Shown piece by piece: positions 1,886-62,883 of a DNA stretch of 64,000 bases. Where the stretch lies: contig CAYGXM010000001.1 of NCBI GenBank assembly GCA_964354105.1, forward strand, positions 85,392-149,391. The letters run 5' to 3'. The notes beneath the pieces are model-generated. The model saw only the letters and a program-made list of their open reading frames with translations, ran no database searches and was not told where the DNA came from. The number at the start of each line of letters is the position of its first letter. Position 1 is the stretch's first letter. The stretch comes from Candidatus Woesearchaeota archaeon. GTDB taxonomy: Archaea > Nanobdellota > Nanobdellia > UBA10117. Both the position numbers and the translations under genes were made by a program.

Positions 1886-1960
1886 ATTAGCAATAGTACA
1901 ACACCTTGTATATAAATTTGTCGATAAATGACAAATTTACTACAACTCTATGTATATTAT

Positions 1961-11295: not shown

Positions 11296-11296
11296 A

Positions 11297-41377: not shown

Positions 41378-41974
41378 ATGGCCACGCTTGTTGATGCTCT
41401 TGGCGTCTTGAAAGGATTTGGTATCTATGACACTATTCTGCCGTTTCTGCTGATAATGGCAGGAACATATGCAATTCTTGTAAAATACGAGCCGTTTGGC
41501 AAAATTAAAGGAGTGAATGCGTTAGTCGCAACAATTGTCGGTCTGGTGTTTATTTCATTTGCAAAAGCCGTGCTATTCCTTAATTTATTGATACCGGCAA
41601 TGACAATATTTTTGCTTTTGCTGATTATGGCCCTTTTAGTGTTTACTTTCATAGGAATTAAGGGAGAGACGATTGCAAAAACATTTCAGGAGACACCAGC
41701 TGCCTTCGGCATATTAATCCTGATGTTTGTTGTTGTAATATTTGTAGTTGCCAGCTCGACTCTGCCTGAAGTTTCATTATTCATCCAGAATCCGGTTTTA
41801 GCACAACAATTAAACATAAGCCCGACCGGCGGAGCGACTCCAACAGCACAGGCAGCAACTTGGCTGATGTTCCAGATGACGCAAGTACTTCTCAGCCCGC
41901 AAATTCTAGGCTTGATTACAATGTTGGTTGTATTTGGAATTGCAGCTTATTTGATTACAAGAGAAAAAGATTAG
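41378..41974 (+). CDS. polytopic membrane protein, paralog of 40583..41194
   Basis: Contains FGIYDTILPFLLIMAGTYAILVKYEPFG and ends in YLITREKD. Confidence 0.55.
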   Translation: MATLVDALGVLKGFGIYDTILPFLLIMAGTYAILVKYEPFGKIKGVNALVATIVGLVFISFAKAVLFLNLLIPAMTIFLLLLIMALLVFTFIGIKGETIAKTFQETPAAFGILILMFVVVIFVVASSTLPEVSLFIQNPVLAQQLNISPTGGATPTAQAATWLMFQMTQVLLSPQILGLITMLVVFGIAAYLITREKD

Positions 41975-43551: not shown

Positions 43552-45825
43552 ATGTCACAACCTGGAGAATTTCAAGTCAAGACAGAAGGTGGAATCAAAG
43601 TTCTTCGCATCAATTATGAGGGAGTTCTTTACACACCAAGCATAGAGGATGACCTAAACATAATGTCCAGAGTTTTTGACATTTTATTGGAAGTCGGCAA
43701 AGTAGGCAAAATCGTTTTCCTGCAGAGAGAAGAATATGAATATGATTGGGCGCAGGTGCGCTTGCTTTCAGAAGTAGTAGATGCTTACAAAAAATTAGTC
43801 CTGGAAGAAAATATTCTGGAAACGTCGAAGCTTGGAGCAACATCTGAATGCCAGAGATACATTCCCGGGTGGTATGATTTCTTAAGGGATACAATTATGC
43901 ACCAGCTGAAAGAAGATCCTATTGGAGCTTATGTTGAATTAGTGAGAAAGCATAGGGAGGAGTTGATAAAACAAAGAAATCCGCCAACTCCTGATTATGC
44001 GCTTTGTTCGCAAAGCTTCATCGAAATACTGCAGCACGCTATTGATGTAATAGGGAATACGGCTTTAATCAAAATATCCGCACAGCACCTGCCCGGCTTC
44101 AAGCCAGGGGACAGGACTTTATACAAACTGCACTTCAGGCCGGCGATTCGGCCTTATTTTGTTTATACAAAATTAGTTACCGAATATCCGACCGGAGCTG
44201 AAGAAATTGACAGTTATAGAATTGCAGAAGATACCGAAGTCCTGATTCTGAGAACACCGCAAGACCTCAGGCTAATTTACCACATAATTCCGCCGGAATT
44301 CAAGCTGACAGAAGAAAAGTATGCGCTCCTGACTGAAGCCAGAGAGGTAATGGCTGAGCACAGGCCGCAAAAGTCTGAATTTATAGACCCTGCAAGAACA
44401 AGGGAAATATTTCTGTCTGTTGAAAGGGATTTGATCCAAGATTTAGCAAGGAACAAAGGACTGAAATTAAATTATAAAGAATTAGAAGAGCTGGCAAGAA
44501 TCCTGCTTAGATATACAATAGGGTTTGGATTGATTGAAATCTTGCTTACAGATCCAAACATACAGGATGTTGTTGTCAATGCTCCGCTGGGAGCCAATCC
44601 TATTTCCATAATACACGGAGATTATGGCGAATGCCGGACAAACATCACGCCATTGACAAAAGAGGGAGAATCTTGGGCGACTAAGCTTCGCTTGATGAGC
44701 GGAAGGCCATTTGACGAGGCCAATCCCGTTTTAGACACAGACTTGTTACTGCCGGGTGCAAGGGCAAGAGTTGCAGCATTACAATCACCTTTATCGCCAT
44801 CAGGATTTGCATTTGCCTTCAGAAGACACAGAGATAAATCCTGGACGCTTCCATTGTTCATTAAAGCAGGCATGCTAACGCCATTAGCTGCAGGAATCAT
44901 TTCATTTTTAGTTGACGGTGCGCGCACAATTTTAGTAGCAGGAACAAGGTCTGCTGGAAAAACATCCCTGCTGGGCGCTTTGATGGTCGAGATTGCAAGG
45001 ACAAACAGGGTGCTTACGATTGAAGATACGCTGGAACTTCCTGTTGTACAGCTAAGACACCAGGGCTATGACATATTATCGATGAAGACTCGCTCGGTTA
45101 TAACAGGAGCAGAGGCAGAAGTTCCTGCAGAGCAAGCTATCAGAACTGCATTAAGATTAGGTGATTCCGCTTTAATAATTGGCGAAGTTAGAAGTGTTGA
45201 AGCAAGAGCTTTGTTTGAGGCCATGCGTGTAGGAGCCCTCGCAAAAGTTGTTGCAGGAACCATCCATGGAGATTCGCCTTATTCTGTATTTGATAGAGTT
45301 GTAAATGACCTTGGTGTTCCGAAAACAAGCTTCAAAGCCACAGATATAATTATGACTGCAAACACAATAACATCTCCGTCAGGCTTGGAGCGTTACAGGA
45401 GATTAGTAAATGTCTCAGAAATCAGGAAATTCTGGACAGAGGATCCTTTATTAGAAAAAGGTTTTGCAGACCTTTTGGTGTATGATGCAAAAACAGACAC
45501 CTTGCAGCCAACTGATGTGCTCCTAGAAGGTGAATCAGAAGTTCTAAAAGCAATTGGAGGCCGTGTTAAGGAATGGGCCGGCAACTGGGATGCAATCTGG
45601 GGCAACATAGAATTAAGGGCCAAGATAAAGCAAGCTTTAGTTGAAAATGCAGCAAAATCAAAACTTCCAGACATCCTGGAAGCGCCATTTGTGGTGGCAT
45701 CAAATGACGAATTCCACAGGCTGTCTGCAAAAGTTGCAGAAGAAGTAGGATTTACAGACCCTAAAAGAGTCTTTACAGAATGGAATAATTGGTTAAAGCA
45801 GCATGTAAAGAAGATGAAAGCATAA
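43552..45825 (+). CDS. type IV filament assembly ATPase (FlaI/ArlI-PilB-VirB11 superfamily) with long N-terminal extension
   Basis: Motifs GFGLIEILLTDPNIQDVVVN, Walker A AGTRSAGKTS, LTIEDTLEL, Walker B ALIIGEVRSVEA and His box AGTIHGDSP. Confidence 0.9.
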   Translation: MSQPGEFQVKTEGGIKVLRINYEGVLYTPSIEDDLNIMSRVFDILLEVGKVGKIVFLQREEYEYDWAQVRLLSEVVDAYKKLVLEENILETSKLGATSECQRYIPGWYDFLRDTIMHQLKEDPIGAYVELVRKHREELIKQRNPPTPDYALCSQSFIEILQHAIDVIGNTALIKISAQHLPGFKPGDRTLYKLHFRPAIRPYFVYTKLVTEYPTGAEEIDSYRIAEDTEVLILRTPQDLRLIYHIIPPEFKLTEEKYALLTEAREVMAEHRPQKSEFIDPARTREIFLSVERDLIQDLARNKGLKLNYKELEELARILLRYTIGFGLIEILLTDPNIQDVVVNAPLGANPISIIHGDYGECRTNITPLTKEGESWATKLRLMSGRPFDEANPVLDTDLLLPGARARVAALQSPLSPSGFAFAFRRHRDKSWTLPLFIKAGMLTPLAAGIISFLVDGARTILVAGTRSAGKTSLLGALMVEIARTNRVLTIEDTLELPVVQLRHQGYDILSMKTRSVITGAEAEVPAEQAIRTALRLGDSALIIGEVRSVEARALFEAMRVGALAKVVAGTIHGDSPYSVFDRVVNDLGVPKTSFKATDIIMTANTITSPSGLERYRRLVNVSEIRKFWTEDPLLEKGFADLLVYDAKTDTLQPTDVLLEGESEVLKAIGGRVKEWAGNWDAIWGNIELRAKIKQALVENAAKSKLPDILEAPFVVASNDEFHRLSAKVAEEVGFTDPKRVFTEWNNWLKQHVKKMKA

Positions 45826-45930: not shown

Positions 45931-47982
45931 ATGGCCGAACTGACACCTGAACAGAGAAAAACATTGTTTCTGAAATATAAGGACAAGATAGAGAAAGAAG
46001 TGGACCAGCCGGCTTCTATTAAAGAAGGCCCTAATGTAACATATTCTGAAGCTTATCAGATTTTCAAGAAAGAGCAAATTGACATCGGGCACAGCTTGTT
46101 TGAGCGTTTGTGTGCTGGCTCTGAAAAAGTGATAAAACTAAAACTGAAGCCTTCTGAAACAGAAAGGCTTCTGCCGTCCCTCGAGATGGCACACATCAGT
46201 GCAACTCCTGAAAGCGTGTATTCTTTCGCGACAATAACAACACTCATAGGAATAGTTCTTTCATTTGTATCCGGCTTGCTGCTCGGGAATTTTTACATAA
46301 TAATAATTGGGATGATAGCCTCTGCAGGAATTTTCTTTTACATTCCATCAATACCAAAAAGGATGTTTATGATATGGCGCTCAAAAGCTTCCGACCAGAT
46401 TGTCCTGGCAGTTTTGTATATGATAATTTACATGGAGCACACGCCTAATCTGGAGTTGTCAACATGGTTTGCCGCAAAACATCTTCCGCCACCACTCTCG
46501 CTTGATTTCATAAAAGTTCTTTGGGATGTCGAAACTAAAAAATACAGCAACATAACTACAGCACTAGAAGATTATATTGAAACATGGAGGGGCTGGGATG
46601 ACGCCTTTATCGATTCGATACATGTCTTGGAAACTGCATTATTTGCAGAAACAAAATCTGAAAGGTTAAAGACTTTGGAGAAGGCGGAAGAAATAATTTT
46701 AGATGGAACATATGACAAAATGCTGACATTTGCGCATAATCTGCAAAGCCCGATACAGACACTGCACATGCTTGGAACAGTTCTGCCAGTGATGGGCCTA
46801 GTAATGCTGCCCATGGTATCTGCTTTCATGGGCGCGTCAATAAAATGGTGGCATATCGCAATTCTCTATAACTTTTTATTGCCAATATCTGTTTATGCAT
46901 TGTCAAAATCTGTTCTGGCAATAAGGCCTGCAGGCGCAAATCCTGCAGATGTTTACATGCATCTAAGCCAAAAGTATCTGAAGCCAAAAATACCGCCGGC
47001 GCTTGTTGGCTTTGGCGTTTTTGCAGCAGTTGCAGCACCTGCAGTCGCCTATTTCACTATTATACAGCCTGCAGGAACAGAAGCCTTCACGACGATGCCA
47101 CTTTTGTTTTCAACTCTAGTTACTACAGCAATAGGGCTCGGGTTTGCAGCGTATTATTTCTACAAAATAAATCACCTGATTGCCATCAAGAAAAAAATAG
47201 CCCAAATCGAGAGCGAATTTGCAGCAGCGATTTTCCAGCTAGGAAACAAGATTGCACAAGGCGTTCCTGCAGAAGCGGCTATTTCAGCAGTTATGGAAGC
47301 CATGCCAAAAGCAGAAGTAACTGATTTCTTCAGAATCATCGATTATAACTTAAGAGAGCTTGGGATGAACTTGAAAGATGCAATCTTTGATGAAAAGAAA
47401 GGAGCATTGTCATTTTATCCTTCAGCCATAATAAAATCAGTTATGAATACGCTAGTTGAAGCTGCAAGAAAATCTCCAGAAATTGCTGCCGCTTCGCTGA
47501 TAACAATTTCAAAATATCTCACGAATGCACACAGAGTTAATGAAAGGCTTCAGGACTTGCTGGCAGATACAACTTCATCAATGTCAGCACAAATCAAAAT
47601 GTTTGCTCCAGTTATTTCAGGAATTGTTGTAGGCCTTTCAGCTTTAACAACATCAATCTTGTCAGATCTGGGAGACAAACTGAGAGGATTCGAAGCAGGC
47701 ACAGAGACGCAAGGCTTCGGCACCGGTTTATTGCAGGTTTTCCAGATAGAGCACATGCTTCCTGCTTATCAATTCCAGCTTATCGTCGGCGTATATTTGG
47801 TACAAATTGTTATTGTAATGTCTTTCCTGCTAAATGGAATAGTAAACGGGCCTGATAAAATAGAACAGGAGAACATGATGTCGAAGAATCTCATATTGGC
47901 AACATTATTCTATGCGGGTCTTACTGTGGCCACAACATTATTATTTGCGGGTCTCGTCGGTGACATAGTGGGGGTAATCTGA
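45931..47982 (+). CDS. type IV filament platform protein (FlaJ/ArlJ-TadC-PilC family)
   Basis: 683 aa and polytopic. Two cytoplasmic T2SSF-like helical domains, e.g. ESEFAAAIFQLGNKIAQGVPAEAAISAVMEAMP. Directly follows the ATPase gene. Confidence 0.8.
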   Translation: MAELTPEQRKTLFLKYKDKIEKEVDQPASIKEGPNVTYSEAYQIFKKEQIDIGHSLFERLCAGSEKVIKLKLKPSETERLLPSLEMAHISATPESVYSFATITTLIGIVLSFVSGLLLGNFYIIIIGMIASAGIFFYIPSIPKRMFMIWRSKASDQIVLAVLYMIIYMEHTPNLELSTWFAAKHLPPPLSLDFIKVLWDVETKKYSNITTALEDYIETWRGWDDAFIDSIHVLETALFAETKSERLKTLEKAEEIILDGTYDKMLTFAHNLQSPIQTLHMLGTVLPVMGLVMLPMVSAFMGASIKWWHIAILYNFLLPISVYALSKSVLAIRPAGANPADVYMHLSQKYLKPKIPPALVGFGVFAAVAAPAVAYFTIIQPAGTEAFTTMPLLFSTLVTTAIGLGFAAYYFYKINHLIAIKKKIAQIESEFAAAIFQLGNKIAQGVPAEAAISAVMEAMPKAEVTDFFRIIDYNLRELGMNLKDAIFDEKKGALSFYPSAIIKSVMNTLVEAARKSPEIAAASLITISKYLTNAHRVNERLQDLLADTTSSMSAQIKMFAPVISGIVVGLSALTTSILSDLGDKLRGFEAGTETQGFGTGLLQVFQIEHMLPAYQFQLIVGVYLVQIVIVMSFLLNGIVNGPDKIEQENMMSKNLILATLFYAGLTVATTLLFAGLVGDIVGVI

Positions 47983-51120: not shown

Positions 51121-54100
51121 ATGAAAAAGGAGTTCAATCAGGCCTCACGAAGCCTGTTTTCAGCGCAATGTCCTGTAACTGAATGCAAAGAAGGCAAGCC
51201 CTCTAACAAATATTTAGAACTAAAAATTTATGATTCATATTTCAATCTGCTGGATAATTTTGCAGAATTTAAAACACAGTTTGATGCCATTAGCAAGCAA
51301 GGACACAGGGTTTGGCACAGCGAATTTGAAATAAATGACGTGAAATACACAATTAAAGCGCTGGATAACCAAATACTGCATACTTTTAGCGATGAAAATG
51401 GCGATTTCTCAACAGTTTTTTTGCCTGAAGGCTATGTTAAAATTGAAACTGCGGATAATGTTGAGTGGAAGTCTTTCGCAGAACTCCATAAAGAATTAAG
51501 GCAAGATGAAAAATTGCTAAACAAATTTGATGAAGCATTTGTAAAAGCAGAAAAAACTGAAATTACAGATGAATATTTTTCAGATTTAAGAATAATTTTT
51601 GCCAATTCACTATCACCTATGCACGCATTAGCAAAAGATGAAGTTTCATTTAACAAAATGCTCGGTTTGATTGGAACTTACCGTCCAGAAATTATCGATT
51701 TTGTATTCGAAACTTACAATTCTCCAAAAGGCCTATCTCAGATATTAGAGCATCAAGCAGATATCTCGTTGAAAGAGCTTCGGGCAACAAGGCCAGCAGC
51801 TCTAGAAGATGTTTTGGAAGCTGGAATGCTGCAGAAATTTGCATTGGCAGTTAAAAGAGGAATGACAACATTACCAGGTATGCTAGTTGCAACAGCGGGG
51901 GTTGCTGTTGCTGCAGACCATAATGCAGGCCATGATGCAGATTCAAAGGATAATAATATTGAAAGTAACAAAGATATTTCACAAAAACCAAATCCATTTT
52001 CTATTGATAATGGCTGGGAAAAGATTAACACGTCAAATGATATAATAAAGTCTTTATGGGGCCACCATTATGGATTAGCGCATATTTCAAAACACGATGA
52101 AATTCTTTTACTGCAGTACCATCACGCAACAAATGGTTTTTTCCAGACTTGGGTTTACCACTTAAATAATGACACCTGGGAAAACAAAACAAGCAGCATT
52201 CAGCCACCAGAGCCAAAAGAGCCTATTATTGCTCCTGCAAATATAATGCTGGCATATGATTCAAAAAATGACAAAGTTGTCTATGCAGAATATCCGTCTG
52301 CATGGGTAAACCAGGGAAAATTTGAGACATGGGTTTATGATGTAAAGACCAATATCTGGACTAACAAAACTACGGGCGACGAGCCTTCCGCCGCATTTGA
52401 AGGCACAAGAATATCTTATGATGAAGAAAGCGGCAAGATAGTAGCCTTCCCTTGCCCAAGTAATAAACCTCCATCCACATGTGATTATACATATACGTAT
52501 GATGCGGCAAGCAATAAATGGGAAAGCAAGGACACTTCCTTGAAACCAGCAAGCTACTATGCAGATTTCGAACTTTTTTATGTGGCTAAGGAAGGCAAAG
52601 TAAGCTGCATCAGCGACAAGGGCAGGTGGTCTTATGATGCAGCAAATGGCAATTGGGAAAACAAATCAGGAGAGCCGCAATACGTACCTGAGAGTTTTAT
52701 ATTTCCATCTTCTGTTTCCCCACCTGAATTTGCATATGATGCGCAAAGCAACAAATTAATCATGTTGGCGCATGGCTTTGAGACGTGGCTTTATGATCTG
52801 GATAAAAATAACTGGTCTGATGCAAAGCCTTTAGCAAACATACCTTATGGCGAGCTTGGCCACTATAAACTAATATACGATGCAAAAAGTGACAGGGTTA
52901 TCAGCACATTGATATTTGATGAATATACAAACCCCTCAAATTTCTGTCCGTTTGAAGTCTGGCAGTATTACTTCAGCACGCCTGCGCAATCACAGACATA
53001 TCCTACATTCATAATTCCTGACAAAGAAATTTTAATGCAGGGAACTCCGCAGCAAACAAATTATCCTGCAGCAGGCGATGACAACAATGTTGCAAACAAT
53101 CATGCTAATGGCCTTTTAGACCAGCAGCAATTCACTGCTGGCGGAAAGCCGATTGTGCTTTATAATGAAATTACAGGCTCAGATGGCTATCTTTACAAAC
53201 AATACATCCTGTATGAAACAGACAATCCTGTTTATGTTTTGATGCCCGGCTTCAAGGACCATCATGCGCAGGATATTGAAGCAGTTATAGACAAATGCAC
53301 ATTAGAAGGCAAAGTTTTGGAAAGAGCGACTTCCTATCATATAAAATACGGCGGCGGACAGTTTGAAAGGGGATGGAAATTTACAAATGATGCAACCAAG
53401 CCGGTTTACATAGAGCTGGCAGGCCATGCGATGTCCGCAAACAACAAGGATTTTTCCAACCCATTTGACATAGTTGTAAAAGATCCTGCAAATAATGAAG
53501 ACCTGCATCCTGCATTTTATCATAAAAATGGAAGGACGTTGACCCCAGAGAATTATGTCCTTATGCAATTGAGCAAGGTAGTTGACAACAGCCAGATAGA
53601 CGCTTATGACAGGTATAAAACAGAAGGATATCCTGAAGCTGCGCCTATTAAATTCGGAGACGCATCAAAAGTTCCGTGGAAATCAACAGCTTTTGTAAGC
53701 CCGTGGATAATTTTTAATGAAAAGGACAAGAGCGAGGCAAAAAGCTGGCAGAACCTGATTGAAGGAAATAACATAGAAGTCAGATTAGTTGCCGAAGGTT
53801 CAAGGCTGGTATTGGGAGAGGAAAATGGAGAAAAGAAAGCAGACCTCCCAGGCACATATGTGGCAGAGGGAAACAAGACCTTCCTAGCCGCTGACTTTTC
53901 TTCATACGATAATGTGCAGCTTGAGATTTGCGCAAAAGGAGACACACACTACAAAGATACAATGTATTTGACAAAAAATGTGAATGGCCAGAGTGTTGTT
54001 GAAGAAAAAATTATTGAAAAAGACATAAAGAAAGGCGAAACACAAATTGTAAAGCTAAATCCAGATACACTGCAGCCAACTATAACGCCAGGTAATGGAA

Positions 54101-54279
54101 ACAATACAAATAATCCGCAAGGCTCAAACAATTCAATTACATGGACTTACATTGCTGCAGGAACTGCAGGAATTGCAGCTGCAATCGGCATAGGCTACGT
54201 CATATACAGGAAGAGAAACCCGCCAAAAAGACCACAGCCTGCTGAATTTTATATGCAGCAGCAACAATCGCAAGCTTAA
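51121..54279 (+). CDS. giant two-TM surface protein with Kelch-like beta-propeller repeats
   Basis: Repeats are FQTWVYHLNNDTWENKT, FETWVYDVKTNIWTNKT, YTYTYDAASNKWESKD, GRWSYDAANGNWENKS and FETWLYDLDKNNWSDAK. Internal hydrophobic segment TLPGMLVATAGVAVAA; C-terminal TM segment WTYIAAGTAGIAAAIGIGYVIY followed by RKRNPPKRP. Confidence 0.65.
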   Translation: MKKEFNQASRSLFSAQCPVTECKEGKPSNKYLELKIYDSYFNLLDNFAEFKTQFDAISKQGHRVWHSEFEINDVKYTIKALDNQILHTFSDENGDFSTVFLPEGYVKIETADNVEWKSFAELHKELRQDEKLLNKFDEAFVKAEKTEITDEYFSDLRIIFANSLSPMHALAKDEVSFNKMLGLIGTYRPEIIDFVFETYNSPKGLSQILEHQADISLKELRATRPAALEDVLEAGMLQKFALAVKRGMTTLPGMLVATAGVAVAADHNAGHDADSKDNNIESNKDISQKPNPFSIDNGWEKINTSNDIIKSLWGHHYGLAHISKHDEILLLQYHHATNGFFQTWVYHLNNDTWENKTSSIQPPEPKEPIIAPANIMLAYDSKNDKVVYAEYPSAWVNQGKFETWVYDVKTNIWTNKTTGDEPSAAFEGTRISYDEESGKIVAFPCPSNKPPSTCDYTYTYDAASNKWESKDTSLKPASYYADFELFYVAKEGKVSCISDKGRWSYDAANGNWENKSGEPQYVPESFIFPSSVSPPEFAYDAQSNKLIMLAHGFETWLYDLDKNNWSDAKPLANIPYGELGHYKLIYDAKSDRVISTLIFDEYTNPSNFCPFEVWQYYFSTPAQSQTYPTFIIPDKEILMQGTPQQTNYPAAGDDNNVANNHANGLLDQQQFTAGGKPIVLYNEITGSDGYLYKQYILYETDNPVYVLMPGFKDHHAQDIEAVIDKCTLEGKVLERATSYHIKYGGGQFERGWKFTNDATKPVYIELAGHAMSANNKDFSNPFDIVVKDPANNEDLHPAFYHKNGRTLTPENYVLMQLSKVVDNSQIDAYDRYKTEGYPEAAPIKFGDASKVPWKSTAFVSPWIIFNEKDKSEAKSWQNLIEGNNIEVRLVAEGSRLVLGEENGEKKADLPGTYVAEGNKTFLAADFSSYDNVQLEICAKGDTHYKDTMYLTKNVNGQSVVEEKIIEKDIKKGETQIVKLNPDTLQPTITPGNGNNTNNPQGSNNSITWTYIAAGTAGIAAAIGIGYVIYRKRNPPKRPQPAEFYMQQQQSQA

Positions 54280-54310: not shown

Positions 54311-54490
54311 ATGGCCATTAAAGACAAAATCAACATGAGAGGAGATGCGCCCTGGTGGGCTTTTCTCGCGGCAGTTATCATAGCCATAGTTGTTGTAATA
54401 TTTTATCTTGTATTTTTCGGCAAAGTCAAAATAGGGGGAGAGGCCGCAACCACAGGCATCATAGACAAAATTGGCCAGATGTTCAAATGA
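54311..54490 (+). CDS. 59-aa single-TM protein, weak class III-like N-terminus; not in the supplied ORF track
   Basis: N-terminus MAIKDKINMRG|DAPWWAFLAAVIIAIVVVIFYLVFF, with a TATA-like sequence 29 nt upstream. Confidence 0.45.
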   Translation: MAIKDKINMRGDAPWWAFLAAVIIAIVVVIFYLVFFGKVKIGGEAATTGIIDKIGQMFK

Positions 54491-54639
54491 TTAAAGGCAA
54501 AAAAGGCGATATATGGTATGGCTACATAATTATGATAATACTTGGCATAATAGGAATTCTTTTTGTATTGTGGATTTTCAGAGGAAGCTTTAGCCCTCTG
54601 AGCAGCAAGCTACTAGCCTTGCTGAACCAGACAACCTAG
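54487..54639 (+). CDS. 50-aa single-TM protein, class III-like N-terminus
   Basis: N-terminus MIKGKKG|DIWYGYIIMIILGIIGILFVLWIF. ATGA overlap with the previous ORF. Confidence 0.45.
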   Translation: MIKGKKGDIWYGYIIMIILGIIGILFVLWIFRGSFSPLSSKLLALLNQTT

Positions 54640-54640
54640 T

Positions 54641-54711
54641 GTTAAATGTTAATGTCAGTAAATCATTATGTCGCATGCTGAATTAGAACTTAACACTTAG
54701 CCCTTTGCTCC
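54641..54711. repeat. intergenic repeat family 1, copy c (internally deleted)
   Basis: Sequence GTTAAATGTTAATG...TCATTATGTCGCATGCTGAATTAGAACTTAACACTTAGCCCTTTGCTC. Confidence 0.65.
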
Positions 54712-54760
54712 AACGTGCAGCGTCAGATTTATGTTCATCAGAACATTAGCGGACCATAGC

Positions 54761-54776
54761 GTCAGATTTATATATC
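54761..54776 (+). promoter_or_regulatory. TATA-like promoter of pilin-like gene 54805
   Basis: GTCAGATTTATATATC; GAGGT Shine-Dalgarno-like sequence at 54795..54799. Confidence 0.45.
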
Positions 54777-54804
54777 CGCATATGTTCAAACAGTATGAGG
54801 TAAT

Positions 54805-55191
54805 ATGGCCAATTCAAAAGGACAAGGTCTTCCATTAAGCTTCATTGTAATAGCAGCAATATCAGTGCTGGTGTTGATAATTATAATTGCAGTTACGTTA
54901 GGCCCTGGCGGAGGCCTGCTGAAGCAATTGATTGCACCTGCGCCAACAGAACTTGGAACAGTGCAGGTTGCCTGCAATTCTTTCTGCGAGAGGGCAAGAG
55001 TGACTGTACAGACTCAAGATCAATATAAGGATTCAGATTATTGCACAAAAACATATGCCATAGATATCGATAAGGACGGCAAGATCAATACTAATGCAAC
55101 TGCTATGCCAAAAGAAGTTGGCCTGCATTGTGTGGATGTAGGTATGCTTTGCACAGTTCAATCAGCAAACGGCACACTATTAACTTGCTAG
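54805..55191 (+). CDS. pilin-like protein (candidate major subunit), 6 Cys
   Basis: N-terminus MANSKG|QGLPLSFIVIAAISVLVLIIII. Own TATA-like element and a GAGGT Shine-Dalgarno-like sequence. Paralog of the next gene. Confidence 0.7.
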   Translation: MANSKGQGLPLSFIVIAAISVLVLIIIIAVTLGPGGGLLKQLIAPAPTELGTVQVACNSFCERARVTVQTQDQYKDSDYCTKTYAIDIDKDGKINTNATAMPKEVGLHCVDVGMLCTVQSANGTLLTC

Positions 55192-55199
55192 GCTACAGC

Positions 55200-55215
55200 A
55201 AAACTATAAAAATAA
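55200..55215 (+). promoter_or_regulatory. TATA-like promoter of pilin-like gene 55235
   Basis: AAAACTATAAAAATAA, 31 nt upstream of the ATG. Confidence 0.45.
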
Positions 55216-55234
55216 CCTTTCTTCTTTTATTCTC

Positions 55235-55633
55235 ATGGCTAAAGGAGGCATTGACAGAAAGGGCCAGGGTTTGCCAATTAATCTTATTGTTATAGCCATA
55301 ATTGGAGTCATTGTATTATTGCTTGTTGTTGCTTTTGCAACAGGCACGTTAGGAAAATTATTTGGCGGCACTAAAGAATTGAGTGAATCAGTAACGCCAG
55401 AGCAAGTTGCAACATTCAGGATAGGATGCAAGCAGGCCTGCTTTGGTGCCCAGCAATTAGCAGATACGCCAGGCGAATGGAAGAAATCAGATTACTGCAA
55501 CAGAACAATAGGCGGGCAGCGTTGCTGGGAAATCGGCGCAGAATGCAGCAAGAATACAACAATTGAAGGCGTAAAGTGGTACTTTAATGCAACAGGCAAT
55601 AATCCTGGAGTAAATATAGCGGGATGTCAATAA
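55235..55633 (+). CDS. pilin-like protein (candidate major subunit), 6 Cys
   Basis: N-terminus MAKGGIDRKG|QGLPINLIVIAIIGVIVLLLVV. Shares the Cx3C...SDYC pattern with 54805..55191. Own TATA-like element. Confidence 0.7.
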   Translation: MAKGGIDRKGQGLPINLIVIAIIGVIVLLLVVAFATGTLGKLFGGTKELSESVTPEQVATFRIGCKQACFGAQQLADTPGEWKKSDYCNRTIGGQRCWEIGAECSKNTTIEGVKWYFNATGNNPGVNIAGCQ

Positions 55634-55863
55634 TCAATAACAAAAAAGGCAGTGCTAAGACTTCGCTTAGCAGGTCTTTCTTACCTCGTGGAAAGAAAGG
55701 CATAGAACTTACAATGCAGGTAATTGTAGTTATAATTATTCTTCTTGCACTTTTGGTTTTCCTGCTCGTGTTCTTGACAGGGCAGGGCGGCAAGCTGACA
55801 ACTTTATGGGACAATTTAGTCGGAACAAGCATTAACCAGACAAATATGTCTACACTGCCATGA
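55624..55863 (+). CDS. short pilin-like protein
   Basis: N-terminal region ...LPRGKKG|IELTMQVIVVIIILLALLVFLLVF; 79 aa. Confidence 0.5.
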   Translation: MSIINNKKGSAKTSLSRSFLPRGKKGIELTMQVIVVIIILLALLVFLLVFLTGQGGKLTTLWDNLVGTSINQTNMSTLP

Positions 55864-56876
55864 CGCGCAAAGGTATTATAGGTGCCATTATACTCGGTCT
55901 CATTGTTTTAGCCATAGTTCTTATTTTCTTTGCGGGTACAGTAATGCCTTTCTTGCAGAAAGCACCTGAAACTGGGCAGAAAACACTTTACTCGCTGCAG
56001 GGAATAGAGCCAGAGCCTTATTATGATGTAATTATAGACAGCTCTAAGAGCTACAGAGGGCACTTGGAATTTTCAGTCTTGGACCCTGAAGCTGATAAAT
56101 ACGTGACAGATTTTCCATTTCCGTCAGCATTTGAAGGCTTTTCAGTTTCTGAAGACAACAACCCTAGAAGGGTGCAAAGCGTTTCTTTATACAGAAATTT
56201 GTATATTGCAACAGCTTTTGAGGGCAAGCTTGCATTCGGCGACTGCAATACATCTTATCTAGAGAAAATGAAAGGGATACCATTCAACAATACACACATA
56301 GGATTTTTCCCGGGAGAAGGCTTCACAGGAGTATGCTCAGATACAAAGCAGAATTATCTTCAGGCAGTAAAAGATGCAACATATGCATTGCCAGCAGGCG
56401 GCGACAACTATAATGCTCTTGTTATAATTGCAGACGGCGACTGCACAATAAGCCCAGACTGCGATAATGGTTCTGAAGAGTATGATGAGCTGATTGGAGA
56501 TGCAGCAAAAGGCCTCAACAGGCAGGATGTACAAACAGCATTGATATTCACGACTAATGTAGCAAACTGCGTAAAAGATGGATCACTTATTAATTTCACA
56601 AGGGGTGCATTAGGTATTTCTGCTGAACAAGTTATAGATGCAAACACAGGTGCGGCATATTATAAGTCACCAGACGGCAGGAGGAGATGCGAGGGAATCA
56701 GTGATTCGAGCTATGAAAACCTTGCAACCACACTTCTCCCTGATGTAGCTAAAATAAAATTAAATTACGTACCTTATGCAGGTGAAGACGGCGTGTCTCA
56801 CACGATTGCTGTGCGCGCAACAAAAAAGCCCTACATGGGTAGGAATGAAATTGAGATTATATATGGTGTTGCTTAA
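55860..56876 (+). CDS. pilin-like N-terminus + 310-aa Cys-containing ectodomain
   Basis: N-terminus MTRKG|IIGAIILGLIVLAIVLIFF. ATGA overlap with the upstream gene. Confidence 0.55.
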   Translation: MTRKGIIGAIILGLIVLAIVLIFFAGTVMPFLQKAPETGQKTLYSLQGIEPEPYYDVIIDSSKSYRGHLEFSVLDPEADKYVTDFPFPSAFEGFSVSEDNNPRRVQSVSLYRNLYIATAFEGKLAFGDCNTSYLEKMKGIPFNNTHIGFFPGEGFTGVCSDTKQNYLQAVKDATYALPAGGDNYNALVIIADGDCTISPDCDNGSEEYDELIGDAAKGLNRQDVQTALIFTTNVANCVKDGSLINFTRGALGISAEQVIDANTGAAYYKSPDGRRRCEGISDSSYENLATTLLPDVAKIKLNYVPYAGEDGVSHTIAVRATKKPYMGRNEIEIIYGVA

Positions 56877-57312
56877 GAAAGGACAGGAAGGACCTGGCTG
56901 GATAATTGTACTTGTCTTAATGATTCTTATTGTAGTAGCATTCTGGACTTTTTTGTCACAGCTGGCGGGGGGAGCTCCGCTGGAAAAGGCATTGAATGAC
57001 GTAAAAGAATCAATAGAGACTGTCTGCCAAAAACCTATATCTAATTACAAGCAGGGCTTTGCAGTCATACCTGAAGGAAACAAAATAGAACTGGAAAAAC
57101 TTGGTGGCGTCCTTAATTATATGAAGGATTCGAATGTACTTGCAAAGAAAACCCTTGAATGCCCTGAAAACACTGTTTTTTCAAACTGCGTAATAGGGCC
57201 GACTAAATCAGGATGGGAAGGTGTGGTTTTCGGCGTGAACAAAACAATAAACATAACAACTGGACAGGCAAAAATAACTTTAAATGGGACAAACGTTACT
57301 TGTAGTGGCTGA
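56863..57312 (+). CDS. pilin-like protein
   Basis: N-terminus MVLLKKG|QEGPGWIIVLVLMILIVVAFW. The internal ATG is preferred over the ORF-track start at 56776. Confidence 0.55.
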   Translation: MVLLKKGQEGPGWIIVLVLMILIVVAFWTFLSQLAGGAPLEKALNDVKESIETVCQKPISNYKQGFAVIPEGNKIELEKLGGVLNYMKDSNVLAKKTLECPENTVFSNCVIGPTKSGWEGVVFGVNKTINITTGQAKITLNGTNVTCSG

Positions 57313-57848
57313 TGGCAAAGAGCATTATTATAGGCATTATTTTTGCATTGATAATGATTGGTTTTATGCTTATTATTGCTAACACATTTATTGCACAGCC
57401 GCTTATGGGCGGTGCAGAAGTGCAGGCTGCAGAAAGCATAGCGACAACATTAAATTCAGCCTGCATGCAAAACAAAGGCTACGTAACTGAACTCGCTGTG
57501 TTTTTGCCTGATTTCAAGAAAGGAGGAGGGCGCACGGAATATTTTTACATTGCAGTAAGTGATTATAATTTATTGCTGCGCGAAAGGAACCAGGCTGAAG
57601 ATATTGTCACGTCATTTATAGATTTTGCAACACAGAGGCCTGGGGAGGAAACAGTTGCAACATATCCGCTTAAGGCATGCAAGGACAAGGGCGTGCAGGT
57701 TTGTATATTATCATTTGACGCCAAAGAGAAAAAATGCAATAATTTCCAGTTTGAGTCCAATGAAGGTATGGAAATGATGACATTTACAGTAAACAGGACA
57801 TACGCCAAAGAAGTTGTCATGAATTATACGCGAGCTGCAAAAAGCTAA
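57312..57848 (+). CDS. N-terminally anchored protein (weak pilin-like)
   Basis: N-terminus MAKSIIIGIIFALIMIGFMLII; 178 aa. Confidence 0.5.
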   Translation: MAKSIIIGIIFALIMIGFMLIIANTFIAQPLMGGAEVQAAESIATTLNSACMQNKGYVTELAVFLPDFKKGGGRTEYFYIAVSDYNLLLRERNQAEDIVTSFIDFATQRPGEETVATYPLKACKDKGVQVCILSFDAKEKKCNNFQFESNEGMEMMTFTVNRTYAKEVVMNYTRAAKS

Positions 57849-57866
57849 AGAAAAGTGTTGGGAAGG

Positions 57867-57966
57867 TCTTAATGTTAATGACCGCTAGAACTTAATGCAT
57901 ATTAGCCAGCAAACTTTTCATTATGTCATGTGCTGAATTAGACCTTAACGATTAACCCTTTGCTCA
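57867..57966. repeat. intergenic repeat family 1, copy b (full length)
   Basis: The 5' half matches 41244..41335. The 3' half (TCATTATGTCATGTGCTGAATTAGACCTTAACGATTAACCCTTTGCTC) matches 54661..54711. Confidence 0.7.
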
Positions 57967-58037
57967 GATATATAAGAAATCAAATTTAATTAAACCCAAG
58001 TTATTTAAATCAAGATTTAGACTTAAAGCTGGCCACA

Positions 58038-60329
58038 ATGAAGTCTAAGCGAGCTGTATCTGACCTAACCCTTATGATGGGTATAGTCATTGCAATAGCC
58101 ATACTTCTTATTGGCGGGATGGCTACTGTCATCAAGCTGGTTGAAGGCGAAGCAAGAGCAAGCCCAAGGTTTGTTGCTACCGATCTGGTTGCTATTATTA
58201 ATACTGTCCAAGCAGCTCCTGAAATAGCAATATTTGATTTCTTCACGCCCCAAGACGAAAACGGCTATCCAATAATAGGAAGCCTTGAGATAGATGATGA
58301 TGCAAGAAAGCTTTGCGTGAGCAAGAAAACAGAAGATGAAATCATAGGCTCGATAGCAGAATCCGCAGGCATCACAGCCTTCGGAACAGGAGGGCAGTAT
58401 GCCTACGAGACAACCAGGCAGAAATTCAGGACATTTTCGCAAAACAAGCTCATTGACAAGACTTTGCCAAGCCTCAAGGCCAAATATGGCGAAGGCATTC
58501 CTACAACACAGACCGGAAAACTCATATTTGCAAGCGACAATGCAGCAGCCACTGGCATGAAGAGGCTCATCAACAGCGATTTTAAAGTAGTAGATACGCC
58601 AGATATGATACGATTATCACACGCTAGGCATAGGCTTCTTGGGACGTATGATGGCATAGAAATTTTCGACAATGGTGTGGAAACAGCACTGTATCAGCAC
58701 ATAGTTGACGAGCAAGGGCGCAAAGACGTAAGGCTACTTGCAAAATATACTGGTAATCCTTTAATGTTAAAAGATGAAGCAAGGAAAATATCTAGATTTG
58801 CAAAATTTACAGATAGCCAAATGGATGAACTCGTTGATGACATAGATGTTTTGGTAAGAACAGATGGTATAAAAGCGTTTGACAGTAGAACAGAACTAAT
58901 TAGCGGCAATGCTCTCCCTGCTGGTGTGAGAACTAATCTAAAAGACGTTGTTAACGATCTTCATAACGTTGACATTGCGGTTAGCATAGACCCAGAAGCA
59001 AATACGTTGTATAAAGGCGCGACAAAAATACCTAAATGGAAGCTTTGGACGCGATTTAAAAATTGGCGTTCTGCCCGCAGTGCAAATGTTGCCAAAACAG
59101 CAATAGGCATGGAAGCAGGCAAATTCCAGAGAATGAAGGCTTATGGTGGCACAATAATAAGCGGCGTGACAATCATAGCATCTGTTGTTGCTATAGGTTA
59201 TGTTAGCGGAGACTGGAATGAAGCAATTATACAAAGCGCCATACCTTCTATCCTAGCTTTTTCAAGGTCTTTTATCGAAACCGGCGCTTATAAGATATTT
59301 CGTGCATTGATAAGGACAAAAGCGGCGGCGGGTGTGGCAGGAGCAGGCGATAAAGTAGAAGACACTGCTGTCTGTGCAGCCCCTCCTGGTGCAGATGTTG
59401 TAGTTGGTTTAGGCATAAGAGCTGCAAAGGCCACAATCATATTCGCAGATTCATTATACACTACAGCATTAATGGATTGGTGGCTTATAGGCATATATAA
59501 TGGAGCATCAAGTGCTGTCAGCAAAGAAAAGGCAGCAATAGACTGTGAGTCTTTCACGTCAACAAAAAAAGTTCTTCTGACGCCTCCTAATTGCGCTATT
59601 GATTTGGAGGATGGGCCTGCTGTCAAGGAATTAGGGCCATCGTTTAAGGCGCTCGAAGTACAAGTTGGAACTTTAATTGCAACTGTCACTGGCTTGAGCA
59701 TTGTCTGCGCAATGCCAGGCAAAGTGTGCTGCGGTGCTAGGTTTCCAATATACATGGGTACGGTAATGCCACAACTTATTTTGATAGGGGCAAACATATA
59801 TACAAATCAGGATAAATATGCGAAACTTGTAACATCTCCAAGTGATATTATTCCAAGAACTTCATGCAAGCCAACGCCAAATTTAAAAACAGATACGTGC
59901 GACAGGACTTATCTTCAACAGGATTGTCCGAATTGGTATATTTCTGATCCAGGTCTTGGCTCTGTTGCTGCCGGTGCAGTTCTTTTGGAATTAATTAACG
60001 CAGGGCCTGCCTGTGCAGCATTCTCTTGGCTTGGGCTTGTCACGCCTGCCTGCAACATGGGTAGGTATATTGGGATGACTGTTTTGCTTGTAACATTTCC
60101 TGGACAGCTTACAGGTGCAATGCTCCAAGGTTATCAGGTTGGCTTTACCAAAAGCAAAATATCTGCCAAGCCTGCTCCTGAATTAGGCCTGACAGAAGCA
60201 GAATTTGCAGACAATGAAGGCTTCTGGTATGCAGAAATGCCTTTTGCCATAGAATTTACAAAAATTTATACAGACAATACAACATCATTGGACTCGAGGT
60301 CAGGCCATTTCGTAATAAGGAAAGCATAA
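58038..60329 (+). CDS. 763-aa protein: pilin-like N-terminus + soluble domain + polytopic Gly/Ala/Cys-rich membrane region
   Basis: N-terminus MKSKRA|VSDLTLMMGIVIAIAILLIGG, followed later by at least 5 hydrophobic segments. Confidence 0.55.
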   Translation: MKSKRAVSDLTLMMGIVIAIAILLIGGMATVIKLVEGEARASPRFVATDLVAIINTVQAAPEIAIFDFFTPQDENGYPIIGSLEIDDDARKLCVSKKTEDEIIGSIAESAGITAFGTGGQYAYETTRQKFRTFSQNKLIDKTLPSLKAKYGEGIPTTQTGKLIFASDNAAATGMKRLINSDFKVVDTPDMIRLSHARHRLLGTYDGIEIFDNGVETALYQHIVDEQGRKDVRLLAKYTGNPLMLKDEARKISRFAKFTDSQMDELVDDIDVLVRTDGIKAFDSRTELISGNALPAGVRTNLKDVVNDLHNVDIAVSIDPEANTLYKGATKIPKWKLWTRFKNWRSARSANVAKTAIGMEAGKFQRMKAYGGTIISGVTIIASVVAIGYVSGDWNEAIIQSAIPSILAFSRSFIETGAYKIFRALIRTKAAAGVAGAGDKVEDTAVCAAPPGADVVVGLGIRAAKATIIFADSLYTTALMDWWLIGIYNGASSAVSKEKAAIDCESFTSTKKVLLTPPNCAIDLEDGPAVKELGPSFKALEVQVGTLIATVTGLSIVCAMPGKVCCGARFPIYMGTVMPQLILIGANIYTNQDKYAKLVTSPSDIIPRTSCKPTPNLKTDTCDRTYLQQDCPNWYISDPGLGSVAAGAVLLELINAGPACAAFSWLGLVTPACNMGRYIGMTVLLVTFPGQLTGAMLQGYQVGFTKSKISAKPAPELGLTEAEFADNEGFWYAEMPFAIEFTKIYTDNTTSLDSRSGHFVIRKA

Positions 60330-60871
60330 TGAAAATGAAAATAAATAAGAAGGGTGTAGAACAGCCGCAAGTAATTGTATATGTAATCTTTGTAATCATT
60401 CTTACAATAGCAGGAATTTATGTTTCATTTACCAAATTAGGCGGAGTTGATATAACTTTTGAATTCCATGATTTTGCCTCGCGGCTTAATGTTGTTTCAA
60501 CAAAACTGATGTTCACGCCTGAATGCTATGCAGTAGAAAGTAATTACACTGCCGAAGATAAAATTTTGCATTACCAGATAAATGGCGGAATAATCGACTT
60601 GGCAAAATTCAACAAGACAAATACAAACATAATAGATTCAAAATGCCTGTCAGGAGAGAAACAAGTCTGGGCAAGCCTGAAAGAAATTAACAAAGCGTAT
60701 AATGAAACAGTGTGGAGCTGTCCCGGCGGAAGAACTTCCTGTACAGAGCCTTTATGGAATGAAAGAACGGATTCAACATTGTGGAACAAGCAAAAACGCT
60801 CTTTTTTCGTCTTGATTAAAAACGGAAACAAGCTTGACAAGGGAATACTCACGGTGCAGATGAAAGAATAA
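60329..60871 (+). CDS. pilin-like protein
   Basis: N-terminus MKMKINKKG|VEQPQVIVYVIFVIILTIAGIYV. Its start overlaps the upstream stop codon. Confidence 0.55.
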   Translation: MKMKINKKGVEQPQVIVYVIFVIILTIAGIYVSFTKLGGVDITFEFHDFASRLNVVSTKLMFTPECYAVESNYTAEDKILHYQINGGIIDLAKFNKTNTNIIDSKCLSGEKQVWASLKEINKAYNETVWSCPGGRTSCTEPLWNERTDSTLWNKQKRSFFVLIKNGNKLDKGILTVQMKE

Positions 60872-60872
60872 C

Positions 60873-61730
60873 ATGGCAGAAATTAAAAACAAAAGCAGGA
60901 AAGGAAGCGCGGACCTGCTCATAGAAATAATTTTCTCGGCAATTGTCTTCTTTGTAGTTACTATAATTGTTTTTGGCCTGCAGATACCCCAGCAGGAATT
61001 CAAGGCGAGAGCAATTGTGGTCTCTGCAGACTCTGCTGTTGCCTGCGACCTTTCACTAACAAATATGCTGAGGGCAAATACCAGCACAGGCATAACTTAC
61101 AGCGACTGGCTGATGAATGAATATGTAGTTGGAAATGACATCAATGCAAGCGCGTCAGGCAGCTGGAAAAGCATCATGGCCGGTTACCTTGACCAAACAT
61201 TTTCATCGGGGAAATGGGTCATGAACATAACACTGCCAAATGGCACAGTTTTGTTGAACATGGGGGAGCTTAAGGGCAATCCTCCTCTAGAAGCAATTTT
61301 TACATGCATGAATTACGTACCTTATCCTGCAGCTTATTCACAGTATTTCTGCTTCCCAGACATTCCTGAATTTACAGATATAACAAGTGGAAACAAAATA
61401 GCCAAGTTCAAGACGCCTGAAGGAGAAGATGTAGAGTGCGTTATTAATATCAAGCCACGGCTTGAGGTAAAAGCCGCTGCAAAATGCAAGCTTGACCTAG
61501 CAGCTAAAAATCCATTCGAGGAAGATCTGCTGTATTATATTGAAAACACAGACGGCTTGAATGACTCCATTACTTTGCCCATTACAGTTGCGAATTCAGA
61601 TTATACTATAACAGTTTACGAGACAGTTGACGGCCTAAAGGCAAATGCTATTCTAAGAAGAAGCTCCCTGCTTGAGGACTGCTCATTGCACGCAGTCCTG
61701 AAAATAACAAACATATCTGCTCAAATCTAA
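60873..61730 (+). CDS. pilin-like protein
   Basis: N-terminus MAEIKNKSRKG|SADLLIEIIFSAIVFFVVTIIVF. Confidence 0.55.
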   Translation: MAEIKNKSRKGSADLLIEIIFSAIVFFVVTIIVFGLQIPQQEFKARAIVVSADSAVACDLSLTNMLRANTSTGITYSDWLMNEYVVGNDINASASGSWKSIMAGYLDQTFSSGKWVMNITLPNGTVLLNMGELKGNPPLEAIFTCMNYVPYPAAYSQYFCFPDIPEFTDITSGNKIAKFKTPEGEDVECVINIKPRLEVKAAAKCKLDLAAKNPFEEDLLYYIENTDGLNDSITLPITVANSDYTITVYETVDGLKANAILRRSSLLEDCSLHAVLKITNISAQI

Positions 61731-61737
61731 ACGTAAA

Positions 61738-62883
61738 ATGGCACAACAAAAAATAAGGTCGAAAAAAGGACAAGGCCTGGGCTTTGTAGCCGTAATTATA
61801 ATGATAGCGCTGCTTTATTTTGTCTTCAGGTACAACACAGAGGCTTACGAATTTGTTATGGCTGCAGGCCAGCAGCAGGCGCATCTCGTAACAAGCTATG
61901 TTGAAACAGAGAAGGCAAAATTCTTTTCAGAGACTGCAATGGAACAAGCAGCTTATGAAACTGCCTGGAAATTTGGAGCGGCAAACTGCAGCAACTTTAC
62001 AGCAAAAATCTGCAGCAAAAAAGATGATTTTATTGAGAATACCACTGTAATATTTTATGAATATCTTGCTAGATATTCGCCGGGCGTAATTGATTTAGAC
62101 ACATATTTCCCCGATTACAGATTTAGAATAAATAAGTGCGACAAAAATGGAATGGAAATAGAAGCATTTGGCTTTGATGAAAGCTGCTGGCTAAGGCCCG
62201 ATTATCCATTCCCTGAATCTGCCTGCCTTGACCAGGAAAATTCAGAAGACTGTCAAGCAGTCAAGTTTACAGATAAGAAAACAGGCGCGTGCAAGTGGAA
62301 CGATACGGGAAAAGCAAATACCAGTTATTGCTATGAGACAAAACCAGCACCGGACTGCGAATCGATAATTAATAGCGCTAATTGCACAGCCAAAAAGGAT
62401 TTGTTTAACAAGGCAGCATGCTATTGGGAAACATCTTATGCAGAGAACATCAACATCCTGTCGATATCTTTGTCAAATTACCAGTTTGGCATAGATTCTG
62501 ACGCACATTTCATAGAAAATATAGACTGCAAGGGCTATGATGCTTTTGTGGCGACAAGGAAAAACATACAGGCCTTCAGGCCGGTGTGCTCTGTTAAAGT
62601 AGAGCCGCTGACTGGCAACACAACAGACACTTTCATATTTACAATTACTTACAAAGGGGAAACAGAGCCAACATTGAATTTTGGAATATTAAATTCAACA
62701 GGCTCTGAAATCAAAAAACCGAAGTTAGACGAAACAGATAGTACTGATAAGATATATCTTGACGGGAAAACTTATACTGCCGGAAGCTTATTTGCTAGCG
62801 CAGGCAAGTATACTGCAAAAATAAGCTGCAAGGACACTTATGGCAGAACGGATGATGATTCGAAGTCATTCACGGTAACTTAA
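61738..62883 (+). CDS. pilin-like N-terminus + Cys-rich domain + C-terminal Ig/PKD-like domain
   Basis: N-terminus MAQQKIRSKKG|QGLGFVAVIIMIALLYFVF; about 17 Cys. The C-terminus AGKYTAKISCKDTYGRTDDDSKSFTVT looks like a beta-sandwich. Confidence 0.6.
   Translation: MAQQKIRSKKGQGLGFVAVIIMIALLYFVFRYNTEAYEFVMAAGQQQAHLVTSYVETEKAKFFSETAMEQAAYETAWKFGAANCSNFTAKICSKKDDFIENTTVIFYEYLARYSPGVIDLDTYFPDYRFRINKCDKNGMEIEAFGFDESCWLRPDYPFPESACLDQENSEDCQAVKFTDKKTGACKWNDTGKANTSYCYETKPAPDCESIINSANCTAKKDLFNKAACYWETSYAENINILSISLSNYQFGIDSDAHFIENIDCKGYDAFVATRKNIQAFRPVCSVKVEPLTGNTTDTFIFTITYKGETEPTLNFGILNSTGSEIKKPKLDETDSTDKIYLDGKTYTAGSLFASAGKYTAKISCKDTYGRTDDDSKSFTVT

Follow-up and report, generated by a model that had tools for sequence, protein, structure and literature searches.

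Paired genes for six-cysteine, pilin-like proteins in a predicted type IV filament locus of Woesearchaeota and other Nanoarchaeia

The gene pair and its promoters

The window analysed here is a stretch of 64,000 nucleotides from a Candidatus Woesearchaeota archaeon (assembly GCA_964354105.1, contig CAYGXM010000001.1, positions 85,392 to 149,391 of the forward strand), and the subject of this work is a pair of adjacent genes within it that encode small, cysteine-rich, pilin-like proteins. Gene 1 (paralog 1, or type 1) occupies positions 54805 to 55191 of the forward strand and encodes 128 residues, which are arranged as a class III signal, a helix and a head with six cysteines. Gene 2 (paralog 2, or type 2) follows on the same strand at 55235 to 55633; its 132 residues combine a class III signal and helix with a six-cysteine scaffold. 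The preliminary description of this DNA had reported two open reading frames (ORFs) of these sizes, and both are present.

The N-terminal sequence of gene 1 is MANSKGQGLPLSFIVIAAIS... and that of gene 2 is MAKGGIDRKGQGLPINLIVIAII..., and both contain the motif K-G↓Q-G-L-P (the arrow marks the predicted cleavage site) ahead of a hydrophobic helix, as had been noticed. The signals read MANSKG↓Q in gene 1 and MAKGGIDRKG↓Q in gene 2, and the proteins carry two and three N-X-S/T sequons, respectively. A count confirms exactly six cysteines in each, at positions 57, 61, 80, 109, 116 and 128 of gene 1 (C57 and C61 form a CX3C motif and C80 belongs to SDYC), and at positions 65, 69, 88, 97, 104 and 131 of gene 2. 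When the two proteins were aligned, they proved to be tandem paralogs (BLASTP E=4e-12, 38% identity over 85 residues), with the CX3C motifs ACNSFC and GCKQAC, as well as SDYC, in register. A hidden Markov model (HMM) of the family, run against the six-frame ORFs of the window, recovered only these two genes as full members (E=4e-51 and 1e-39).

Each gene had also been credited with its own TATA-like element, and this observation holds beyond the window. The promoter and leader region of gene 1 (54758 to 54801, forward strand) contains TTTATATA at 54767-54774, preceded by A-rich bases that resemble a transcription factor B recognition element (BRE), and a GAGGT Shine-Dalgarno sequence at 54797-54801. 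The TATA-like element lies 38 nucleotides before the ATG, a distance of 36-39 nucleotides in all seven loci compared, where GAGG is found 3-5 nucleotides before the ATG. The spacer between the genes (55192 to 55234, forward strand) is organised differently: the TATA-like CTATAAAAA at 55203-55211, about 24 nucleotides before the ATG of gene 2, is part of the arrangement AAAACTATAAAAA, C/T-rich tract and ATG, and there is no Shine-Dalgarno sequence, which suggests a leaderless or near-leaderless mRNA. This element and its C/T-rich tract are found 24-30 nucleotides before the gene 2 ATG in six of six two-gene loci. Both TATA-like elements are therefore real and conserved, and their role as promoters is putative. 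Separate promoters are not universal in the family: in one locus (L001) three paralogs are packed together, and copies 2 and 3 have no promoter-bearing spacer between them.

A side observation concerns the same region. An exact 14-nucleotide direct repeat, AGCGTCAGATTTAT, occurs at 54719-54732 and 54758-54771, 39 nucleotides apart, where 0.01 matches are expected by chance. The copy nearer to gene 1 extends into its TATA-like element, and the six other loci lack the repeat ahead of gene 1. It could stem from the duplication of a promoter piece or serve as the site of a regulator.

Signal, cysteines and predicted head of the family

Searches seeded with words retrieved 30 relatives for gene 1 and nine for gene 2, all labelled "hypothetical", and an HMM run exhaustively over 1.84 billion representatives extended the family to 1042 clusters (50% identity) at E<=1e-3, of which 245 remain at E<=1e-10. 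All of the named members come from Candidatus Nanoarchaeia/Woesearchaeota. Their common fingerprint consists of K/R-G/A↓Q-G-L-P/S, CX3C, S-x-Y-C, a DxNxDG loop and three further cysteines. What is new is an unannotated, lineage-specific family that its sequence marks as pilin-like, with a six-cysteine head and an EF-hand-like loop, in a conserved locus of DPANN archaea.

The N-terminus is the most constant part of these proteins. In a family set of 166 representatives, position -2 is K/R in 150 of 156 sequences (96%), position -1 is G/A/S in 153 of 156 (98%) and position +1 is Q in 136 of 155 (88%). The N-region has 4-7 residues and a net charge of +1 to +3, and it is followed by a helix of roughly 22 residues; the residues K/R, G/A, Q, G, L and P, which precede or begin this helix, are the best conserved of the whole protein. 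In both proteins of the window the short basic N-region, with K/R at -2 and G/A at -1, stands before the hydrophobic domain, and a hydrophobic helix of at least about 20 residues begins right after the cleavage site (the helices of the AlphaFold models span residues 12-32 in gene 1 and 15-36 in gene 2). Distant members start with KKG↓QISMNTIV, KKG↓AELSMNVII or KKA↓DISMNTIV, all of them canonical class III signals of archaea. Judged by its residues, the family N-terminus is an archaeal class III (prepilin) signal. In substrates of the EppA type, the Gln at +1 is conserved and required, and the known sites read KGQV or RAQI (PMC4371748); the Q-G-L-P of the window proteins reads as a lineage variant of this +1 Gln motif.

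Among type 1 orthologs, the stretch from -2 to about +28 (residues 5-35) is 85% identical in pairwise comparisons, whereas identity in the head is 38-56%. The H-domain of the Haloferax volcanii pilins PilA1-6 is almost completely conserved (PMC4371748), and a nearly identical N-terminal region joined to a variable head is the pattern of pilin families of this kind.

These N-termini bear on the question of whether the proteins belong to a filament at all. They could instead be uncleaved, membrane-anchored surface proteins, or cysteine-rich Ca2+-binding peptides secreted by the Sec pathway, which might, for instance, provide docking or cohesion to the large surface proteins (Kelch and FG-GAP) that the locus encodes; we consider this very unlikely. 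Some members have an A-P-A motif after the hydrophobic segment that could mimic a signal peptidase I site. The motif is, however, followed by a proline, a residue that disfavours signal peptidase I at this place, and at about 22-27 residues the hydrophobic segment exceeds what is usual for the h-region of a Sec signal. A plain anchor or a Sec signal would also leave without explanation why K/R, G/A, Q, G, L and P are the best conserved residues. A Sec-type signal cleaved at A-P-A was considered as the principal account of the N-terminus and was rejected as such because of the invariant N-terminal motif and the proline.

Beyond the helix, conservation is concentrated in the cysteines. The six cysteine columns are 93-100% conserved in the alignment of the 166 representatives. 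Over 185 representatives, 112 have six cysteines and 37 have eight, while the rest have 10 to 20, and the number is even in 178 and odd in only five. Disulfide pairing in an exported domain would be expected to produce such a bias towards even numbers, and the six cysteines probably lock the head through three disulfides. Disulfides were judged more likely than the binding of a metal cluster because of the location outside the cytoplasm and the lack of CxxC or CxxCH patterns. No disulfide-forming enzyme was found by Pfam among the window ORFs that were scanned. The spacing C-X3-C-X17/18-C is fixed, and the distances between Cys4 and Cys5 (6-25 residues) and between Cys5 and Cys6 (11-28 residues) vary. 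In some type 1 members (P0023, P0025, P0029; L006, 10001-10534) there is a second, C-terminal six-cysteine module that ends in CCVV or CCVG and brings the total to 12.

Gene number varies as well. Most of 17 loci hold two or three full copies of the family, and L017 holds one. The type 1/type 2 pair is kept in ten further loci, the other six carrying one to eight family ORFs, and in every two-gene locus among those fetched the type 1 gene comes before the type 2 gene. The largest array, in L016 (positions 1057-3825; Nanoarchaeota metagenome-assembled genome (MAG) AUK188, JAGGYW010000020.1), contains eight family ORFs in tandem, as against the usual two or three: six cysteine-rich paralogs with 8-12 cysteines that start with MKSQGLP, MKAQGLP or MKAQGLS, a 67-residue ORF without cysteine and a 42-residue fragment.

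AlphaFold models built with family alignments reach a mean pLDDT (predicted local distance difference test) of 78. They consist of a membrane helix, a low-confidence linker rich in Gly and Pro (below 50 at residues 44-47 of paralog 2) and a confidently predicted head (pLDDT 85-93 in paralog 2), in which the helix of the CX3C motif and short helices around SDYC accompany a small three-stranded sheet. This modelled architecture, in which a membrane helix precedes a small alpha/beta head, would fit a pilin; the fold of the head has no counterpart among solved structures.

Between Cys3 and Cys4, gene 1 has the loop DIDKDGKINTNA (residues 87-98), of the DxNxDGxI type. A loop of the form D-x-[DNS]-x-[DNSG]-G-x-[ILV] stands at the same place in 93 of 185 members, and in 41 of the 185, such as DLNADGNITSEE and DVNGDGEISEDE, it agrees with a PROSITE-like EF-hand pattern of 12 residues (D-x-[DNS]-x-[DENSTG]-[DNQGHRK]-x-[LIVMC]-[DENQSTAGC]-x-x-[DE]) that includes an acidic position 12. 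A profile search of the sequences in the PDB gave nothing significant, the dockerin 1daq (E=1.3) being a match below significance, and Pfam EF-hand models were likewise sub-significant (E about 0.01-0.03); one relative carries a precomputed assignment to Pfam EF-hand_8. From the pattern of its residues, the loop of paralog 1 may bind Ca2+. The loop is absent from gene 2 and its orthologs, which have lost it. The predicted flexible linker between helix and head would suit a tethered domain outside any filament, and the likeness of the loop to the Ca2+ sites of dockerins and EF-hands also speaks for a non-filament role.

The filament locus and the role of the pair

The genes around the pair form a putative type IV filament locus. 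Nine kilobases upstream, at 43552 to 45825 of the forward strand, lies a gene for a type IV filament assembly ATPase (Pfam T2SSE, E=5e-15), which is related to Archaeoglobus GspE (2oap, E=1e-28), CpaF and FlaI. It is adjoined by a gene for a polytopic membrane protein of 683 residues (45931 to 47982, forward strand), whose size and position are kept in other loci and which is presumed to be the platform. A GT4 glycosyltransferase is also encoded upstream of the pair. The gene order from the ATPase to an FG-GAP protein recurs in six independent contigs (L001-L006), and besides the pair the locus encodes about ten other class III-like proteins. This constant linkage to the locus of a filament ATPase is a further point against a role outside the filament.

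The pair does not stand at the head of the pilin block, as the preliminary description had it, because it is preceded by two conserved mini-ORFs, which have a BRE/TATA-like element of their own about 35 nucleotides upstream. The first of them, mini-a (54311 to 54490, forward strand), encodes 59 residues (..MRG↓DAPWWAF..), and the second, mini-b (54487 to 54639, forward strand), which overlaps it, encodes 50 (..KKG↓DIWYGY..). Both proteins have little beyond K/R-G and one hydrophobic helix, with the aromatic motifs APWWAF and DIWYGY; all six loci L001-L006 have mini-a, and all but L005, where it was not called, have mini-b. Directly 3' of the mini-b stop codon there is an inverted repeat (54638-54697, with 16-nucleotide arms that are 81% complementary and a 28-nucleotide loop), which may form a transcript-end or regulatory hairpin. 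Just upstream of the mini-ORFs and the pair, at 51121-54279, lies the gene for a Kelch/beta-propeller protein of 1052 residues with a C-terminal membrane anchor, which is likely to be a surface adhesin or an enzyme of the same locus; its orthologs in L004 and L006 also match Metallophos (calcineurin-like phosphoesterase).

On the other side, the stop codon of gene 2 overlaps the start of mini-c (55624 to 55863, forward strand), which encodes a headless class III protein (..KKG↓IELTMQVIVVIIILL..TGQGGKLT..). In the mini-c of the window, 16 residues inserted at the N-terminus repeat the KKG site (NNKKGSAKTSLSRSFLPRGKKG↓IELT), a feature found also in L006 and L009 and lacking in most loci. From 55860 to 62883, on the forward strand, follows a tightly packed run of larger proteins that contain cysteine (338, 156, 178, 763, 180, 285 and 381 residues) and begin with K/R-G and a hydrophobic helix; these are presumed to be minor pilins or adhesins, and their order is kept in L001-L006. 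The last of them, the cysteine-rich protein of 381 residues (61738-62883), begins KKGQGLGFVAV, with the same Q-G-L start as genes 1 and 2, so this variant of the signal is common to at least three subunits of the locus. Genes after gene 2 abut or overlap, and the overlap of its stop codon with the next ORF makes gene 2 probably the first gene of a downstream operon.

Elsewhere in the window there are genes for a surface-layer-like protein, FEN1, TruD and SMC/ScpAB. These genes mark the window as archaeal. The FEN1 shares 73-77% identity with its counterpart in MAGs of Woesearchaeota/Nanoarchaeia in which these pilin-like genes are likewise present, and the window is accordingly assigned to a member of the Woesearchaeota (DPANN). 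At 40583-41194 and 41378-41974, two neighbouring paralogs without a family match, both polytopic membrane proteins of about 200 residues, are encoded just upstream of two coiled-coil proteins, after which comes the filament ATPase. A free-standing ORF that resembles LAGLIDADG-type homing endonucleases (11273-11959, Pfam E about 1e-6) adjoins RNase HII.

Taken together, the signal, the cysteines and the locus make it likely that genes 1 and 2 encode processed type IV pilin-like subunits of a filament specific to Woesearchaeota/Nanoarchaeia. Each preprotein would insert into the membrane, and a prepilin peptidase encoded outside the window would cut after Gly6 (gene 1) or Gly10 (gene 2), at a Q(+1) site of the type processed by EppA, to leave an N-terminal Gln. 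The near-invariant hydrophobic helix (QGLPLSFIVIAAIS...) would act as the polymerisation module, which the neighbouring ATPase and membrane platform would extract from the membrane into the core of the filament. The head, of about 80 residues, would then sit on the surface, its CX3C helix packed on the small beta-sheet and probably held by three disulfides, with the EF-hand-like Ca2+ loop as an addition in paralog 1 and the length-variable loops between Cys4, Cys5 and Cys6 as the exposed, fast-evolving part.

Several results weigh against this interpretation. Neither the two proteins nor the 57 relatives that were scanned matched a family in Pfam or NCBIfam, pilin and archaellin models included. 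Neither window protein matches Pfam PF04021 (Class_IIIsignal) or PF01917 (Arch_flagellin) at E<=0.1; among the 57 relatives one has a sub-threshold match to Arch_flagellin (E=0.003). The predicted helix breaks at the Gly/Pro linker instead of forming the long, continuous alpha-1 of known pilins, and a Foldseek search of the PDB found no solved structure, pilin or otherwise, at E<=0.001 for either model; this lack of a detectable pilin fold also speaks for a non-filament protein. Structure prediction, which had been proposed as a check for a pilin-like fold, gave an N-terminal helix and a small alpha/beta head, but the helix is interrupted and no solved pilin matches the head. The gene 1 loop DIDKDGKINTNA fits the EF-hand pattern at positions 1-9 and fails it at position 12, where it has Ala and not an acidic residue. 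Finally, none of the approximately 70 window ORFs scanned with Pfam matches a prepilin peptidase (Peptidase_A24 or Arc_PepC), and the 683-residue membrane protein has no match to the T2SSF/TadC platform even at E<=10.

The notion that these proteins are pilin-like subunits is well supported, and the question of which of them, if any, forms the shaft has to be considered separately. Paralog 1, which has a putative promoter of its own and a Shine-Dalgarno sequence, would be the first choice for the abundant subunit. Paralog 2, which probably opens an operon of larger class III proteins, may be a second major subunit or a linker between the shaft and the tip or adhesin proteins. The contrary proposal is that the six-cysteine proteins are minor pilins, which prime assembly or decorate the tip, and that the shaft is built most likely from the headless mini-c, or possibly from mini-a or mini-b. 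The signal of mini-c (KKG↓IELTMQVIVV) is the most canonical, and the protein is present in 14 of 17 loci. The Epd system, which is of the Q(+1) type, has been reported to have a headless major pilin (bioRxiv 10.64898/2026.04.22.720090), which makes mini-c a genuine rival for the shaft subunit; this EppA-type system has also been reported in DPANN archaea. In addition, gene 2 probably shares a transcript with mini-c and with the genes for the larger class III proteins, in the layout of a minor-pilin operon, and the close packing of the L001 paralogs, without a promoter between copies 2 and 3, points the same way. On the other hand, mini-c lies inside an operon without a promoter of its own, whereas gene 1 has its conserved TATA-like element and Shine-Dalgarno sequence in seven of seven loci. 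Moreover, families of major pilins and archaellins, such as H. volcanii PilA1-6 (PMC4371748), show the same pattern as this family, whose ORFs, up to eight in tandem, differ in the head and hardly at all in the helix. On balance, an exclusively minor role for the six-cysteine proteins appears unlikely.

If they are filament subunits, the odds that type 1 is the main shaft protein are roughly even, with a slight lean in its favour. The promoter and Shine-Dalgarno sequence, the near-invariant helix, the tandem arrays and the variable heads would speak for it; against it would stand the place of type 2 in an operon, the parallel with Epd/Flp shafts, which are headless, and the predicted linker. 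The term "major subunit", as read from these sequence features, is plausible but unproven.

The identity of the shaft determines what the family would mean. Woesearchaeota and other Nanoarchaeia are abundant, uncultured archaea with reduced genomes that are thought to live attached to hosts. A formerly unannotated family of about 1000 clusters can now be recognised as the small subunit that characterises a conserved type IV filament locus, and from its sequence and setting it probably builds the attachment pili of these archaea. Should it form the pilus shaft, it would enlarge the repertoire of pilins by a new head fold and offer targets for antibodies, mass spectrometry and cryo-electron microscopy in the study of contacts between DPANN archaea and their hosts; should its members be minor pilins only, the result would be a useful but ordinary annotation. 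A more elaborate proposal, which we regard as quite unlikely, is that the helix, the flexible Gly/Pro linker and a triple-disulfide, Ca2+-switchable head form the shaft of a DPANN-specific attachment pilus, in which Ca2+ occupancy of the EF-hand-like loop and the exchange between type 1 subunits, which bear the loop, and type 2 subunits, which do not, would tune the stiffness of the filament or adhesion to the host in episymbiotic Woesearchaeota.

Comparison with known systems

It is well known that bacterial type IVa pilins have a disulfide-bonded D-region and that the pseudopilins GspG/PulG have a Ca2+ site. By analogy only, the proteins described here share a functional logic with them: a conserved N-terminal polymerisation helix, a small head with variable C-terminal loops bracketed by cysteines and, in some members, a candidate Ca2+ site that would stabilise the head. 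No homology is detectable; the type of signal and the +1 residue differ, there is no Glu5, alpha-1 is predicted to be interrupted, and three disulfides are predicted instead of one. The resemblance to EF-hands and dockerins lies in the D-x-[DNS]-x-[DNSG]-G-x-[ILV] loop, which half of the family has at a fixed position between Cys3 and Cys4, but here the loop is single and has neither the flanking helices of an EF-hand nor the duplication of a dockerin.

Disulfide-stabilised archaeal pilins had been considered unusual, and they are indeed uncommon, yet not unprecedented. Conserved cysteines have been reported in type IV pilus components of the Thermoproteales and in the Pyrobaculum pilin (PMC4858521). 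As in the present family, the subunits of that group (subclade 4E; Pyrobaculum arsenaticum pilin) are archaeal type IV proteins with multiple conserved cysteines, and bonds between them have been proposed or observed. The Thermoproteales are hyperthermophilic Thermoproteota, whereas the genomes studied here are DPANN MAGs of mesophilic type; no similarity of sequence or fold was detected, and here a head of about 80 residues has the cysteine pattern CX3C-X17/18-C-Xn-C-Xn-C-Xn-C.

The remaining comparison is with the EppA/Epd pilins, the type IV filament "system 1" of Methanococcus maripaludis (EpdA-E). The differences are clear: the motif after the cut is Q-G-L-P/S here and Q-I/V-S there, the six-cysteine alpha/beta head is not seen in Epd pilins, and one large membrane protein takes the place of two platform genes. 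Furthermore, no EppA-like peptidase was seen in the window, and the window proteins match neither Pfam Class_IIIsignal nor any pilin model. What the two systems have in common is the short basic N-region, the G/A at -1, the Gln at +1 and the hydrophobic helix, as well as the clustering of several class III genes with a secretion ATPase and the mixture of headless and headed subunits.

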